DNA of 64,000 nucleotides from Escherichia coli (lineage in GTDB: Bacteria; Pseudomonadota; Gammaproteobacteria; Enterobacterales; Enterobacteriaceae): NCBI RefSeq assembly GCF_030013595.1, contig NZ_CP122768.1. The stretch is one strand, 5' to 3'. Below, piece by piece: positions 38,834 to 44,342 of the stretch. Below the pieces are notes generated by a model. That model had not been told where the DNA came from. It saw only the letters and a list, made by a program, of their open reading frames with translations, and searched no databases. The translations under genes and the position numbers were made by a program. The stretch's first letter is position 1, and each line of letters starts with the position of its first letter.

Positions 38834-39104
38834 GGATTTTTGATACGTTCCCGCGTGCTCGTATCACCAGCACGCAGAACACCAGGTTAATCAGGACGAC
38901 CAGCCAGTTACCGGGAGGAAAGCGACCACACAGATAACAAAGCGGCGCAAAGGCATAAAGCAGCATCAGCAGCCAGGCCAGCCACGACATCAGCGGTTTA
39001 TGTCTCGACTCACCACGACGATAAAAAAAGAGCGTCAGCACGATAACCGTGCTTAACACCACATTCAGTAATCCGGGAAGGTTACTTAACATTACCGCCT
39101 CCAC
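38814..39104 (-). CDS. Putative holin/antiholin-like membrane protein
   Basis: Three hydrophobic segments; between holin and lysozyme. Confidence 0.4.
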   Translation of the reverse strand: MEAVMLSNLPGLLNVVLSTVIVLTLFFYRRGESRHKPLMSWLAWLLMLLYAFAPLCYLCGRFPPGNWLVVLINLVFCVLVIRARGNVSKILVLRRR

Positions 39105-39471
39105 CCCGCAGACGGGAGAACAGCCCGGATACCAGCGATGCGATATCCTGCTGGTGGATGAATGAGAGAATCTTCACCGACACCACCGATACCAGTACCG
39201 CACAAAGCGCGTCGAGAGATGTGCTGTGGAGATTCAATTTTTCGACCAGCCAGGACGCAAGGACATCCGCCCCCAGCACGCCAACAATGAACGACACCAG
39301 AAAATGCGCCGCCACACGCCAGACAGAAATCACCTGTGGCATCGTGGCCACAAACAACGCCCCGGCAAACGCGCCAAACACAATCCCGAAATCCGTCCCG
39401 GTAAACAGCCCGAATACCGTCGCCCCGCCGAGCGCCACAGCAGTGCTGGAACCGGATAAGGGTTCAGACAT
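39082..39471 (-). CDS. Putative holin
   Basis: Gly/Ala-rich transmembrane helices; first gene of the lysis cassette. Confidence 0.5.
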   Translation of the reverse strand: MSEPLSGSSTAVALGGATVFGLFTGTDFGIVFGAFAGALFVATMPQVISVWRVAAHFLVSFIVGVLGADVLASWLVEKLNLHSTSLDALCAVLVSVVSVKILSFIHQQDIASLVSGLFSRLRGGGGNVK

Positions 39472-41095
39472 ATTTATTCTCCTGTAAATAAAAAGGACCA
39501 TCAGCGGCCCCGTAACTGACATTTTATTAACGTTTGAAGATATGGATATTTATCAGGGTTTACCGTTTTCTGAACCCTGGATATGTTAAGCATTCAGCCC
39601 GCCAGTGGTGGGACGCTGGCTCATCATAGAGAAAGAGGGATGGCTGATTACCTCTGATCAGGGAAATCACATGCAGTTTTTACATAAAAGAATGCATTTA
39701 AATGCAGGAGATACGGTAGTGGTTGACTGCTCTCATCAGTGCAATATTTTGCTGATGACAGATACAAACTTTAATAACTACCGCAACGCAAGAAGCTTTC
39801 ATCATCACGGTGGTGGCGGTTTTTTTCAGAGATTACCGGCCCACCTTCATGTACCGCATTCAGGTTACTGGAATATTACAATTGATTTAGGAGGCGGAAG
39901 TGCAGCTATTCGGCACTCCATTTCCGTCATCCCAGCATAGCAACTCGCCTTTAGCCTGAGTAAATGCGTCCTCAAGGACGGCAACGAGTCGCAGTTGCGT
40001 GCCGTCCTTTACACAGCGTGTGCAGGCAATACCTTCAGAACTTTCATTATGCCGAGCTCATACAATTTCACCATTTTGTTCAACTACAACGCTCATAATT
40101 TTCTTACACTTTTTTAATAAACCACACCAATAACAACCATCACCGATACCTTTTGTATGCTGTTATTTTGCATTACGGTGTAACGGCAAGAGCCCCCTCC
40201 CCGCCCTGAAAGGCTCTGTGTTTTTGATGTGCGCCTGATGTGGCTCAGATACAAAAAAGCTCGCAGTAGCGAGCTAACAGAAAATATGAAGCATGTTTTT
40301 ATCCACGAAGTATGACGTTGAATTCATCCATACCGACACGGCTGGCTATCTCGTTGTATTCCTCAACAAGAGCCAGCAATTCTGAATTAGCAGCCATGAA
40401 CTCTTCAAAAACCTTATGGATGGCATCACTGTTTAATAAAACAATGTTCTTTCCTGAAAGGCGATCAGGGGTAGAAAATATAACTGTCAAACGACTAAAG
40501 GCCCTGGCTCGTTCAGCATTAACATCCTCAATACGCTGCAACAAGCTGGAGCACCTGGAAATATCATCAATATTCACTCTACTCCTGCCATCTGGATGAT
40601 AATCATTTCACGGAGAGAAGCACTCAGAAGTACCACTGAAGTATAGCTGGTGACCAGCTACTTACACATCTATTGCCATCCTGCTGATGATAAGTCGACA
40701 TTAGCCCTTCTGTCTATAAACGAAACAAAGGATAAGTTCAGGTTTTAAACACACTGCCAGGATAAAGTATTGTATACAGTATAGAAGAGCGTTATTGAAT
40801 GACATAAAAAACCAGACCTAATCCCTTATCCGGAAGATATATCAAATAAACGGGGAAAATGTATTAAGATGGCGTTCCTATTCTCTCCATCCCTGATGTC
40901 CACGTAACTCGTTATAGAATCAGAACGCCATCTGAATACACACAAAAAAGCTGACTTCACACCCTCCAGATGTGTGAACGCAGTGCCCGACCACGTGCTT
41001 TCGCAACCAGCACAAATCATTTTAAAGCATCGAAAAACGATCAGAATATATCAGAACTTCCTAGCATCCTGCTTGGCTTAGATATTAATCGAGGA

Positions 41096-42181
41096 TTAGC
41101 TCCTGTTCTTATCTAATTGTGCATTTCGCAATTTATCGTTCAGCACCAATATTTCACCAACTGTTTGTTCAAAACGCCCGGACTCAAGTTCAACCCCAAT
41201 CGTGCGACGCCCCAATCCCATTGCTGCTTTTATTGTTGCCCCCGATCCCATAAAAAAATCCGCAACCACATCCCCCGGACGACTGCTGGCAGAAATTATC
41301 TGACGCAACATATCCGCCGGTTTTTCGCAGGGATGCTTACCCGGATAATACTGCACGGGCTTATGCGTCCAGACGTCCGTATAAGGAACGGCGGCCGATA
41401 CAGAAAAATAACGCCGCAGAGATTTGTATTCCTCAAGCAGACTGGCATATTGCCGGTTCAGTTCACTGTATGTGCTGACCAGTTGCTGGTGTGGCGTTGC
41501 CAGCTCCCCACGCTGGTGCTTTTCTTCTGCAACACACGCGAACAGCGCCTGCAGTTTTCTGTAATCAGCTTCGTTCGGTAACTGCCACTGACAGGTACCA
41601 AACCAGTGCGACACCATGTTTTTCTTTCCGGTGGCTTCCGCTATCTGTTTGGACGTTATCCCCAGTGATTCACGCGCATCACGGAAGTAAGAAATCAGCG
41701 GGGCCATGACGTGTTGTTTAAGCTCGCGCTCCTTTGCCGCATAGCCATCATTTTTTGGCTGGTATGGCCCCTGATAATGTTCGGCAAACAGAATGCGCTC
41801 TGTTGCCGGGAAATACGCCCGCAGGCTTTCTTTGTTGCACCCGTTCCAGCGTCCGGATGGCTTCGCCCAGATAATGTGGTTCAGCACATTAAAGCGCTCA
41901 CGCATCATGATTTCGGTGTCAGATGCCAGGCGATGACCACAGAACAGGTAGAGACTTCCGGCAGGTTTCAGTACCCGCCAGAACTGAGCCAGACACTGAT
42001 CCAGCCATTTCAGGTAATCATCGTCGCCCTTCCACTGGTTATCCCAGCCCTCGGGCTTCACTTTAAAGTATGGCGGGTCTGTGACTATCAGATCGACAGA
42101 GTTTTCCGGTAAGGTCTGGATAAATTCCAGGCAATCAGCGTTGATTAACTCACAACTGGATATTTTTACAGTATCAACCAT
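41096..42181 (-). CDS. DNA N6-adenine methyltransferase (orphan)
   Basis: DPPY catalytic motif (VTDPPYF); SAM-binding region FFMGSGAT near the C-terminus; no adjacent endonuclease gene. Confidence 0.8.
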   Translation of the reverse strand: MVDTVKISSCELINADCLEFIQTLPENSVDLIVTDPPYFKVKPEGWDNQWKGDDDYLKWLDQCLAQFWRVLKPAGSLYLFCGHRLASDTEIMMRERFNVLNHIIWAKPSGRWNGCNKESLRAYFPATERILFAEHYQGPYQPKNDGYAAKERELKQHVMAPLISYFRDARESLGITSKQIAEATGKKNMVSHWFGTCQWQLPNEADYRKLQALFACVAEEKHQRGELATPHQQLVSTYSELNRQYASLLEEYKSLRRYFSVSAAVPYTDVWTHKPVQYYPGKHPCEKPADMLRQIISASSRPGDVVADFFMGSGATIKAAMGLGRRTIGVELESGRFEQTVGEILVLNDKLRNAQLDKNRS

Positions 42182-42702
42182 AGATCAATAAGCACTTCTC
42201 TGATAGGCTCATACCGCTTTTGCGCAAAGCAGATGGGCCTGAGGTTTGCTTGTGACCCTAACGCATGAGCAGATGGCTGGCAGGTGCCGCTAACACCCAC
42301 CAGCCGCCCATTACCACAAATGAAAAAACCTTCACTGCGGAAGGCGTCTGTAACAACCGAACTGATAATCTGCCAGACCCGCCATAACAAGCTGGGTCAG
42401 TATTAACTGACAGCGTTCGCGTGAAAGGTAAGTATTCTGCGCAATTTCCCCAACTGTTGCCGGTTCAGTGACGCTTAATTCATTAAACACCACTCTGGCT
42501 GTTTCGGTCATATCCTGCTGTTTTAGCATGTCTTTTTCTCTTTATTGGTTAACGTGACATACCAATAACTCTTGTCGAAAAAGCCAGCAAGCTGAAAGAC
42601 CGGTATTAATAACCACCTGCACATTTTATGTACCGAACCATTTTTCTGGCATAAAAAACCTCTCAATGGCGGGCGGTAAAAATCTTTGTTACTCAAGAAA
42701 TT

Positions 42703-43416
42703 TTAACGCACTCTGACTGTATTAATTTCAAAATCATTAATATTTCCGCTATTAAATATAACGAATTTCTTACCCCCACTCCTGTATGATTTCGATAACA
42801 CCAGACGATCATCATAACGCGCAATAATGTAATACCATACATTCTCATAGTGGATCGCCTGATATTCCCTCTTAAACTGTGGTTTGTACCAACCGGCAAT
42901 AAGAGAGAATGCCCAGAAATAAATCATAAACCCAGCCATCATGAACTCAATTCGGTGATGACGAATAAAAGACATTTCCGAAAAACATTTGACTGAAACA
43001 AGTCTTCTTCCAAACCTGACAAAAAGCGTGATTGTAAAGGCAGCAAGAATGCAGAAAATCAGTACATCTGGCTCAACATGCTGATGGATTACCGAAAACT
43101 CCAGAACAGGTGGAATAAAAAGCAGCAATATCGCGAGAAAAAGCCGGATAAAACTCAAATTTTGTATATTGCGCTTTTGTTTTATGCCCAAAAAGAAAAC
43201 AATACCAACTCCCCATCCAATAAGGAATATAACGATAACTGTCACAGCATAAAACAAACTTCGTGCTACATCATCGACACCAGCCCCGACAACCCACCAT
43301 GGAAAGCCATAGTAAAATGAAGTACCCCATCCATAGAAATAAGCGCTTCCCCATCCTAGACAGCCCATATAAGCAACAAAAAGTGAAGAGTTTCTGAGCA
43401 GAGCACTGTCATCCAT
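42703..43416 (-). CDS. Multi-pass membrane protein of unknown function (cargo downstream of Q)
   Basis: 237 aa, several hydrophobic helices rich in Trp/Tyr/Phe; AT-rich gene. Confidence 0.5.
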   Translation of the reverse strand: MDDSALLRNSSLFVAYMGCLGWGSAYFYGWGTSFYYGFPWWVVGAGVDDVARSLFYAVTVIVIFLIGWGVGIVFFLGIKQKRNIQNLSFIRLFLAILLLFIPPVLEFSVIHQHVEPDVLIFCILAAFTITLFVRFGRRLVSVKCFSEMSFIRHHRIEFMMAGFMIYFWAFSLIAGWYKPQFKREYQAIHYENVWYYIIARYDDRLVLSKSYRSGGKKFVIFNSGNINDFEINTVRVR

Positions 43417-43670
43417 AGTAACACCATTAACAACTCAAAAATATCAACACATATTACATAACAAATTGGATTCCATGCAGTCAAGGGGCGTCATTGATGG
43501 AGAAAGTATTGGCACAATCATCATCACGTTTAATGTCTATGCCATTTTTTTGGGGATAAAAAAACCCGCTCGGTCACGGGTTTTACTAGCTTTGCCATCA
43601 CGTATAAAAACGGCAAAATATCAGATTCACACGAAATATATGCCTTTTTATCTACTTTTGCAATACTTTG

Positions 43671-44342
43671 CTATGAAAATGCCGCCTTTTGTTTTGAACG
43701 TGTTCCCTCCACCAACAATAAAGCTTCACCATCCAGCCGATGAAAAATGTGTTTCATTGCAACCCAGTGACCAGTAAATGTCTTGGACCAGTTTTTGGTT
43801 GTTACTCCCACCAGTAACGCCAGTTCCTGGTATTCGTAACCTTCCCCACCAAAAAGCTCAGCTTTTACCGCCTGCGCCGCCAACCAGATCAACGTCTTCA
43901 GGCGCACCAGAGTTTTTCCTGCAATTTTTCTGGTACCGGATTGAGCATTAAATTCAGTCCACGCCCACTGCGTTATCGCGATCTGATGCTCCCAGCAAAT
44001 GCTACCGCTGTAACACCACAGCAGCCAGGCTTTATGATGTTCTTCAAGAGACAGAACGGCGCGTCGCCATGATGATGTCGAAAACTCAACCGGACTGACC
44101 AGGGCAATTGATGAACCTTTCACCAGCGATTGCTTTCCCGGGATCGGTGGATTATCCAGCGTTACTATTTTTCCAGTGACCTTATCGCGGTACCGGATTT
44201 TTTTACGTCTGTAACGCCCTGTATTGAACATGGCATTCTCCTGCCAGGCTTCAAGCTGACCTTTTGTTGCTCCACTCAAATCAGCGGTGGCGATCATGAG
44301 CTGCTCACGCACAAACTGTAAATACTGGTTATTCATGCGCAC
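43671..44342 (-). CDS. Putative late antiterminator Q-like protein
   Basis: Position between rusA and the lysis region; 223 aa; family assignment from memory only. Confidence 0.5.
   Translation of the reverse strand: MRMNNQYLQFVREQLMIATADLSGATKGQLEAWQENAMFNTGRYRRKKIRYRDKVTGKIVTLDNPPIPGKQSLVKGSSIALVSPVEFSTSSWRRAVLSLEEHHKAWLLWCYSGSICWEHQIAITQWAWTEFNAQSGTRKIAGKTLVRLKTLIWLAAQAVKAELFGGEGYEYQELALLVGVTTKNWSKTFTGHWVAMKHIFHRLDGEALLLVEGTRSKQKAAFS

Follow-up and report, generated by a model that had tools for sequence, protein, structure and literature searches.

The closest described relatives of the methyltransferase considered here are M.EcoGII and M.EcoGI, encoded on prophages of E. coli O104:H4 C227-11, which act without sequence specificity, stay silent in the lysogen and are harmful if constitutively expressed (PMC5778455). 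In O111 lysogens, no methylation was detected for homologues 92–93% similar to these enzymes (PMC6602927). Every reconstructed ancestor of the clade was able to methylate both DNA and RNA, with no sequence motif at the RNA sites modified by Anc291, SUPREM or M.EcoGII (PMC11551740). Among sequenced phages, the Stx2e phage phiP27 (NC_003356, L21-L28) is closest to the prophage described below. In phage Mu, a harmful DNA-modifying enzyme is likewise encoded late, at com-mom, with a small gene directly upstream; binding of the zinc-finger protein encoded by com to the mRNA opens a stem that occludes the start site, and the mom promoter is switched on late by the C protein.

Here we analyzed the interval between the Q-type antiterminator gene and the first holin gene of a prophage within a window of 64,000 nucleotides, the whole stretch of E. 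coli DNA (contig NZ_CP122768.1) to which all coordinates refer. The best explanation of the interval as a whole, to which we assign a probability of roughly 75%, is that it opens the late operon of a lambda-like, intact-looking prophage integrated beside yccA, and that this operon is driven by Q and carries an anti-restriction module of the M.EcoGII type with add-on genes around it.

Gene content and occurrence of the interval

The interval is bounded on the right by the first holin gene of the lysis cassette (39082..39471, minus strand; phrog_198, E 5e-41; 'putative holin' in RefSeq). The genes named in the initial annotation all proved real and correctly placed, except that the left boundary of the DUF1883 gene had been set at 39605. 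This is where the longest ORF opens, with a GTG; counted from there, the Pfam domain starts at residue 23, and the gene start is the ATG at 39671, as in RefSeq. The whole 4.3 kb occurs at an identity of at least 99.8% in many RefSeq E. coli chromosomes, and all six genes of the interval carry RefSeq annotation in the matching chromosomes. Since they are near-identical and annotated in many chromosomes, the six ORFs are genes and not chance reading frames.

Among 5,426 complete E. coli genomes, the interval was covered over at least 80% of its length in 50, and part of the query, mostly the module made up of a 65-aa gene, a leader and the methylase gene, was matched in 2,654. Across the interval, the methylase gave the sole convincing PADLOC match, with a marginal match of SWIM_XIII (E 0.0035) to the 65-aa protein. 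The small proteins and the membrane protein matched no NCBIfam family in a library copy that lacks the STM1630-family model, and no Rfam family, AgvB, AsxR, Esr41 and STnc100 included, matched at the gathering threshold within the window. Overall, the interval is an ordinary and largely explained one: a widespread phage module joined by two or three small add-on genes.

A predicted late promoter and terminator follow Q

The Q-type late antiterminator (223 aa; 43671..44342, minus strand; phrog_304, E 1.6e-104; 'bacteriophage antitermination protein Q' in RefSeq) shares 76% identity with the Q82-like Q of phage 434 (OL657226). The promoter scan placed a pR'-like late promoter, TTGCAA-17-TATATT, at 43635..43663 (minus strand), within a block that is conserved just after Q in phage 434, and beyond it a predicted hairpin, AAAACCCG..CGGGTTTTTTT (43558..43584, minus strand), resembles the intrinsic terminator tR' and aligns with the annotated post-Q terminator of phage 434. 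A Q gene with a predicted promoter and intrinsic terminator close behind it corresponds to the layout of a lambdoid late unit. Every promoter call made here is weak, because the scan returned 10 sites against 9.2 in shuffled sequence.

Phage 434 resembles the prophage in its Q type, in this promoter/terminator block and in having a PF27470-type membrane protein (55.7% identity) encoded first thereafter. It differs in that it is without the methylase module, and in that TciB, another small membrane protein and a SASA-family esterase precede its holin.

An M.EcoGII-family methyltransferase within a conserved late module

The largest gene of the interval (41096..42181, minus strand) encodes a beta-class N6-adenine DNA methyltransferase of 361 aa (PF01555, E 1e-41, residues 29-340), with DPPY at residue 35, a central recognition region and FMGSG at residue 310, a motif order shared with M.EcoGII and M.EcoGI. 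As read by machine, with a few errors, from supplementary Table S1 of PMC11551740, M.EcoGII is identical to it at 293 of 345 residues (85%) with 2 gap positions, over the full length and including the recognition region. The protein is also 86% identical to Anc291, an active reconstructed ancestor, and 91% to phiP27 L24. Like M.EcoGII and M.EcoGI it is encoded downstream of Q, and a near-identical copy of M.EcoGII in phage 1720a-02 has the same 65-aa gene and leader upstream. The differences from M.EcoGII amount to about 15% of residues and a 17-aa C-terminal extension (361 aa compared with 349); since many of the differing positions lie in the target-recognition region, some sequence preference of the present enzyme is possible.

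Upstream of the methylase gene lies that of a 65-aa winged-helix protein (42332..42529, minus strand; phrog_331, E 1e-37), which gave weak TrmB, MarR and HTH_24 matches and for which a PDB sequence search was empty. Its equivalents are L23 in phiP27 and orf47 in SfV, and it precedes the methylase gene in about 180 of 196 related loci, down to methylase identities of 54–65%. The 65-aa gene, leader and methylase gene are found after Q in many lambdoid phages, Stx2 phages among them, and come directly after it in SfV, phiP27, 1720a-02, cdtI, phiNP and Flotzy; in SfV, cdtI, phiNP and Flotzy, moreover, Q, the 65-aa gene, the methylase gene and the holin gene are contiguous, and nothing else stands between Q and the holin. 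Judged from these comparisons, the 65-aa gene, a conserved 164-nt leader and the methylase gene constitute a backbone-like late module and not cargo. The methylase had been proposed to be cargo, which does not fit with its place in this module or with its GC content of 50%, the same as that of the window.

No nuclease gene is present among the ORFs at 39082-44342, from Q to holin, and the methylase is an orphan, as had been noted at the outset; the interval likewise holds no endonuclease gene with which it could make up a Type II restriction-modification system. The methylase gene lies 3' of the Q-controlled terminator and of a second hairpin with a T-run. Because it is downstream of a promoter/terminator unit conserved with phage 434, it is most likely a late, Q-dependent gene, the role of which would be to methylate progeny DNA against restriction. 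Protection of phage DNA, already suggested in the initial annotation, is also the role proposed for the characterized relative M.EcoGII (PMC5778455). A function in lysogenic conversion, suggested alongside it, is unlikely for the methylase, methylation by M.EcoGI, M.EcoGII and the 92–93% similar homologues having been undetectable in lysogens (PMC5778455, PMC6602927). For the same reason, a comparison of the methylomes of the lysogen and a deletion strain would probably show nothing.

A conserved leader with a predicted fold precedes the methylase gene

The 164-nt leader (42182..42345, minus strand) is predicted to comprise three parts: hairpin 1 with a T-run (42323-42345, minus strand), which overlaps the stop codon of the 65-aa gene; a long hairpin (42265-42311, minus strand); and a compound hairpin (42183-42257, minus strand), closed by the helix GGUCA/UGAUC, which stops a single base short of the methylase AUG. 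Its minimum free energy is -74.7 kcal/mol (z -3.87). Mean column identity across 28 diverse sequences was 81%, a figure that includes the 5' arm used as the search pattern to collect them, so that the invariance of this arm is partly built in. In the alignment, 87.9% of cells were paired, compared with 30–45% when partners were slid. Twelve pairs were changed on both sides, with compensatory changes spanning three helices; one in 500 shuffles reached 12, a statistic inflated by the mutual relatedness of the sequences. The leader matched no Rfam family, and no Shine-Dalgarno sequence at normal spacing precedes the methylase start in the leader sequence. A 74-aa ORF overlapping the leader (42166-42390) was ruled out by frame-breaking indels in relatives.

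The leader is possibly the one new item of the region. A tentative reading, which we would sooner expect to fail than to hold, is that it is an undescribed cis-regulatory RNA, conserved among phages of E. coli, Shigella, Klebsiella and Citrobacter, that gates a harmful, non-specific methylase. Hairpin 1, whose loop contains the stop codon of the 65-aa gene, could in that case couple termination to the translation of this gene; the last helix would, with the same reserve, conceal the methylase start codon at its 5' edge; and the structure might be opened or closed by the winged-helix protein or by the methylase, a kind of enzyme known to act on RNA. Such an arrangement would recall Mu com-mom, with its late and harmful modifier, its small gene immediately upstream and its start codon beside or inside an mRNA stem. 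The likeness would be one of analogy: the 65-aa protein gives winged-helix matches only and is not a zinc finger like the com product, there is no sequence relationship, and the chemistry of the enzyme is another.

Strong conservation of the leader could instead reflect a site at the DNA level, and a protein of DNA-binding type is encoded alongside it in about 180 of 196 loci. According to this alternative, the leader acts as DNA, being an operator or an activator-dependent promoter that is bound by the 65-aa protein and serves as a late switch for the methylase, by analogy with late activation of the Mu mom promoter by C. The many invariant columns would fit with such a site, as would a weak TTAGCG-17-TATCAG read from the alignment inside the leader. 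Against it stand the compensatory changes in three helices, the excess of pairing (88% against 30–45% with slid partners) and the stability of the fold (z -3.87), and phage LLS keeps the leader without a recognizable 65-aa gene. We regard this alternative as improbable.

A proposed model for late expression of the methylase and its alternatives

The comparisons show what the genes are, their homologies, a layout that is conserved and RNA pairing that is conserved; from these we infer the timing of expression, the non-specificity of this particular enzyme, its anti-restriction role and any role of the leader. Upon induction, Q would carry RNA polymerase from the pR'-like promoter past the adjacent terminator and the later hairpins and into the lysis and head genes, and the late transcript would include the three-part module of 65-aa winged-helix protein, structured leader and M.EcoGII-family methyltransferase. 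By homology, the methylase would modify adenines of the progeny DNA with little or no sequence specificity, and the methylated phage would escape many restriction systems in its next host. In the lysogen the methylase would be kept off, because indiscriminate methylation is harmful; control may be exerted by the upstream terminators and possibly by the leader, in which the bases just 5' of the methylase start are predicted to be paired and no Shine-Dalgarno sequence occurs at normal spacing.

A first alternative, in line with the view taken at the outset, is that the whole interval is lysogenic-conversion cargo, with a methylase expressed from the prophage for epigenetic regulation or standing protection. 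The presence of an orphan methylase within a classic moron interval would agree with this, as would the activity in lysogens of other phage-borne methylases, such as M.EcoGIII (PMC6602927), but close homologues of the present enzyme remain silent in lysogens, and their expression is harmful (PMC5778455, PMC6602927). In addition, the GC content of the gene is like that of the host, it lacks a promoter-like site of its own and has a terminator-like hairpin just upstream, and it belongs to a conserved module and not to a variable insert. We consider this view quite unlikely. Less likely again, and very nearly to be set aside, is that the methylase was left over when a restriction-modification or other defense system lost its other half, and that it guards the host, and not this phage, against other phages. 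Its best PADLOC model is indeed a Type II methylase (PDLC03265, E 8e-153), and in phiP27 a gene of the GIY-YIG nuclease family lies two genes upstream of the methylase. That slot holds the membrane protein gene in this prophage, the lack of a nuclease ORF between Q and holin extends to SfV, cdtI, phiNP and Flotzy, and a nuclease that is sequence-specific could not be paired with a methylase that lacks specificity.

Late expression of a phage-protective enzyme is the reading that we prefer, and it corrects the assignment of the methylase of a very common prophage region, from a function of the lysogen to a late enzyme of the M.EcoGII type around which methylome experiments should be designed. 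Should the leader prove to be regulatory, it would explain why thousands of E. coli lysogens can carry the gene of a methylase acting on every adenine, and it could help those who express M.EcoGII as a tool.

Candidate add-on genes around the module

A moron, in the usage attributed to Juhala and colleagues in 2000, is reportedly an extra gene with its own promoter and terminator, lying between genes that are adjacent in relatives and often of deviant composition. That the Q-to-holin interval is such a site, as first proposed, is borne out by phiP27, in which tRNA-Ile, tRNA-Arg and stxA2e/stxB2e lie between the same methylase and the holin. The prophage shares with phiP27 the 65-aa gene, the methylase (91% of amino acids), a DUF1883 gene (a remnant, L27, in phiP27) and two holins, in the same order, and shared parts are 91% identical in nucleotide sequence. 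It differs in its Q, in having the membrane protein gene where phiP27 has the GIY-YIG gene, and in having a spacer and the gene of a 92-aa protein in place of the tRNA genes and stx2e. The region also shows what fills the stx slot of Stx2e phages in non-toxigenic relatives.

The membrane protein and 92-aa genes are absent from SfV, cdtI, phiNP and Flotzy, where the flanking genes adjoin, whereas the methylase gene belongs to the conserved set. GC content is 39% for the membrane protein gene, 42% for the 92-aa gene and 43% for the DUF1883 gene, in comparison to 50% for the methylase gene and the window. Based on this deviant composition, their patchy presence, the promoter-like site and terminator of the 92-aa gene, and the corresponding slots in phiP27 (stx2e) and phage 434, the genes of the PF27470/STM1630-family membrane protein and of the 92-aa protein, together with the antisense DUF1883 gene, appear to be the true add-ons, and all three are candidates for expression from the prophage.

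The membrane protein (237 aa; 42703..43416, minus strand; phrog_1521, E 1e-84) contains 20% F/W/Y and four hydrophobic segments in a Kyte-Doolittle scan. An identical protein, WP_000342735.1, is an 'STM1630 family protein' in RefSeq, and the family was assigned by this name and by PF27470, which is precomputed on 104 of 104 homologues. We found the protein in 451 of the 5,426 E. coli genomes but at only 17 of about 196 methylase-bearing loci; its phage 434 homologue, CPT_434_68, occupies the same slot. A possible promoter of its own, TTGACT-N18-(TG)TTATGTA (43455..43484, minus strand), was read from the sequence but missed by the consensus promoter scan. The block TTGAC...TTTGTTATG (TTGAC-N18-TGnTATG) is kept upstream of the phage 434 homologue, promoter-like sites overall being at chance level, and the gene has no terminator of its own. 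For the phage exclusion suggested at the outset as its possible role, as for any other, none of the tools used gave a functional hint, and a fold search was dropped, the AF2 model from a 23-sequence alignment being too poor (mean pLDDT 57). STM1630 itself turned up, together with SPI-2 genes, among the genes affected when avirulent regulator mutants were profiled, and in the macrophage follow-up decreased replication was seen only for the other tested gene, STM2475, so that no function can be transferred from STM1630 (PMC2639726, bioRxiv 10.1101/689075).

The 92-aa protein (40299..40577, minus strand; phrog_2873, E 9e-47) is rare, with only four clusters among 5.8 billion proteins, and a 61% homologue is encoded downstream of Q in phage mEp460_ev081. 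It is predicted to form a helical hairpin of two long helices (AF2 pLDDT 85.8), and Foldseek searches of this model against PDB and viral models returned generic helical hairpins, none at E <= 0.001. Upstream of the gene, the top-scoring site of the scan, TAGACA-18-TATCAT (10/12 matches; 40687..40716, minus strand), is promoter-like and conserved in relatives, again with such sites at chance level overall. The gene is followed by a clear intrinsic terminator (40253..40275, minus strand) with a 7-bp stem, 5 GC pairs and a T-run, of which the stem is kept and the loop varies among relatives.

Between the 92-aa and methylase genes, where Stx phages have their tRNA genes, lies a non-coding spacer of 518 nt (40578..41095), which is confined to the 50 E. 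coli genomes sharing the arrangement and is never annotated. It contains no tRNA or tRNA remnant, and there was no Rfam match at E <= 1 in 39900-41150. RNA folding just 3' of the methylase stop (40920-41100) was like that of shuffled sequence (z +0.32). A 64-aa ORF within the spacer (40826-41020) was ruled out by frame-breaking indels among relatives.

Lastly, the DUF1883 protein (89 aa; 39671..39940, plus strand; PF08980, E 4e-26; PDB 2b1y, E 3e-8) is encoded antisense to the late operon, and in some relatives a pair of TerB-family and DUF3927 genes occupies its place.

The interval is an ordinary late region

Positions 39082-44342 belong to a lambda-like E. coli prophage and make up the start of its late region, with all genes except one on the minus strand. 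Reading from the Q-type antiterminator (43671-44342), minus-strand ORFs encode a 237-aa membrane protein (42703-43416), a 65-aa protein (42332-42529), a 361-aa methyltransferase (41096-42181) and, beyond a gene-free stretch of 518 nt, a 92-aa protein (40299-40577); a DUF1883 protein follows on the plus strand (39671-39940), and two holins and a family-108 glycoside hydrolase (endolysin) come last. Every protein of the interval matched a phage protein family (E 1e-27 to 1e-106). Many RefSeq chromosomes of E. coli, chiefly of pig and cattle origin, have a near-identical copy of the 4.3-kb interval; its coverage is at least 80% in 50 of 5,426 complete genomes, where the same genes are annotated. 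In strain EC42405, the 44 kb around the interval form a complete lambda-like prophage adjoining yccA; its head and tail genes are of lambda type, and it also has repressors of the CI/Cro type and an integrase. The family matches, annotated near-identical copies and complete prophage together confirm the genes listed in the initial annotation; all are real and in place, except that the DUF1883 start is the ATG at 39671, not a GTG at 39605. Beyond Q, the early side of the EC42405 prophage includes hokD and a Doc-family toxin gene (L011 26751-27805) and, further along, DicB and a YdaT-family toxin gene. The region is ordinary among E. coli prophages.

The methyltransferase belongs to a conserved, probably late module

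The methyltransferase has a beta-class layout (DPPY at residue 35, FMGSG at residue 310) and is 85% identical to M.EcoGII (sequence taken from the PMC11551740 supplement), 85% to the enzyme of phage 1720a-02, named a close relative of M.EcoGII (PMC5778455), 91% to phiP27 L24 and 86% to the reconstructed ancestor Anc291. Homology places it in the M.EcoGII family, apparently as an intact member. Adenine methylation by M.EcoGII and M.EcoGI occurs regardless of context; both enzymes go unexpressed in the lysogen and are harmful to cells under constitutive expression, and a role in shielding phage DNA against restriction has been proposed for them (PMC5778455). Each of the six reconstructed clade ancestors methylated both DNA and RNA, and RNA site preference, tested for two enzymes (Anc291 and SUPREM), revealed a motif in neither (PMC11551740). 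Homologues with 92-93% similarity in O111 lysogens gave no methylation signal (PMC6602927), and the lysogen methylome comparison proposed earlier would probably be uninformative.

The description of the methylase as lacking a partner nuclease held, with no nuclease gene found within the interval among ORFs or by PADLOC. Its assignment to cargo did not: it belongs instead to a characterised family and a conserved late module, in which it co-occurs with the 65-aa gene as a pair. The pair lies directly 3' of Q in SfV (orf47/48), phiP27 (L23/L24), 1720a-02, cdtI, phiNP and Flotzy, as well as right after Q in many Stx2 phages, and in several of these phages nothing else separates Q from the holin. 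In a census of methylase-bearing loci, the 65-aa gene was just upstream of the methylase in ~180 of ~196, a pairing kept down to 54-65% methylase identity. The 65-aa protein gave weak winged-helix matches only (TrmB, E 0.003; MarR; HTH_24), and the GC content of the methylase (50%) equals that of the window.

Q shares 76% identity with its Q82-like counterpart in phage 434, and the post-Q sequences of the two phages can be aligned. Within the aligned block lies a promoter-like site (TTGCAA-17-TATATT, 43635-43663), followed by a hairpin and T-run (43558-43584) corresponding to a terminator annotated in 434. Second and third hairpins with T-runs lie over the end of the 65-aa gene, at its stop codon (42323-42345), and 3' of the 92-aa gene (40253-40275). 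We infer that Q-modified polymerase would read through all three, while lysogen transcripts from a weak local promoter would stop ahead of the methylase, an arrangement that fits the published silence of its homologues.

A conserved leader precedes the methyltransferase

The sole element of the region that might be new is the leader between the 65-aa gene and the methylase (42182-42345, minus strand), which is conserved above its flanking genes: its 150-nt gap has 90% column identity in four phages, against 80-91% for their coding DNA. The leader folds at -74.7 kcal/mol (z = -3.87 against shuffled sequence) and matched no Rfam family. We gathered copies by scanning viral contigs for an invariant 16-mer and added GenBank phages of Klebsiella, Citrobacter and Shigella, giving an alignment of 28 sequences with mutual identity below 94%; the most distant copies are ~63-69% identical to the window, and the 5' arm of the long hairpin, being the search pattern, is invariant by construction. 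A five-helix structure drawn from the window fold and the alignment had 87.9% of cells paired, compared with 30-45% when partners were slid by 1-3 columns, for sequences that are related and a structure partly derived from one of them. Two-sided pair changes numbered 12 (shuffle mean 6.9; 12 reached in 1 of 500 shuffles), and the covariation score was 0.141, against 0.108 for shuffles and at most 0.080 for slid partners. The compensatory changes span phages of E. coli, Klebsiella, Citrobacter and Shigella.

The 65-aa gene's stop codon sits in the loop of the first hairpin. One base separates the end of the last helix (GGUCA/UGAUC plus AAGC/GCUU) from the methylase AUG, which has no Shine-Dalgarno at normal spacing before it; distant copies carry GGAC/GUUC or GGGC/GCCC in place of AAGC/GCUU. 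Much of the conservation lies at the sequence level, where a DNA site would account for it as well. A regulatory RNA is plausible, and we hold that reading tentatively, at a probability of roughly 0.3. Two viral contigs (L188 and L127) retain the 65-aa gene's end, the first hairpin and the beginning of the long one before diverging completely, which suggests a recombination breakpoint inside the leader.

Cargo genes and swappable slots

The initial framing of the interval as a moron site was right, and the membrane protein, the 92-aa protein and DUF1883 fit it as true cargo. The membrane protein (GC 39%, 20% aromatic residues) has four hydrophobic segments in a Kyte-Doolittle scan and, in an AF2 model, more helices and then, at the C terminus, a small beta region. 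All 104 homologues come from enterobacteria and carry PF27470, and RefSeq names the identical protein 'STM1630 family'; Salmonella STM1630 was among the genes affected in profiling of avirulent regulator mutants, where it is listed with SPI-2 genes (PMC2639726, bioRxiv 10.1101/689075). The membrane protein is present in 451 of 5,426 E. coli genomes and at only 17 of the ~196 methylase loci. Phage 434 has a 56%-identical protein in the same slot, as first gene after its Q and terminator, and shares the upstream TTGAC-N18-TGnTATG block. In phiP27, by contrast, the Q-to-65-aa slot holds L22, a 409-aa GIY-YIG nuclease family gene (L001 7733-8962).

The 92-aa protein is seldom found (4 clusters in 5.8 billion proteins); phage mEp460_ev081 encodes a 61% homologue 3' of its Q. 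It is confidently predicted as a helical hairpin, a fold that gave no pointer to function, and its gene has the region's best promoter-like site and a clear terminator. At its position, phiP27 instead has tRNA-Ile, tRNA-Arg and stx2e. The 518-nt spacer (40578-41095) sits where Stx phages have tRNA genes; we found in it no gene, tRNA or Rfam match, and the phage collection contained nothing that matched it. Its occurrence is limited to the 50 E. coli genomes with the same arrangement, and it is non-coding, since relatives carry frame-breaking indels, and its first ~250 nt past the methylase stop are nearly invariant. A block of 73-80 nt (40196-40274), which takes in the terminator that follows the 92-aa gene, shares ~80% identity with the sequence immediately 3' of the tRNA-Arg gene in several lambdoid phages and in a phage of Actinobacillus; in the PPompW phages, its edge is exactly where an IS110-family element (ISEc20) has inserted.

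The DUF1883 gene is oriented against the late operon. Just past its stop codon, a 10-bp inverted repeat (39974-40009; AAGGACGGCA ... TGCCGTCCTT), absent from the terminator scan, is probably the terminator of this gene as read from the sequence. Some otherwise near-identical prophages (L008 1966-2540 and L010 1966-2540, relatives of positions 39600-40250) have DUF1883 swapped for a same-strand pair of TerB-family and DUF3927 (TciB-like) genes; here, immediately 5' of the holin, is a second swappable slot.
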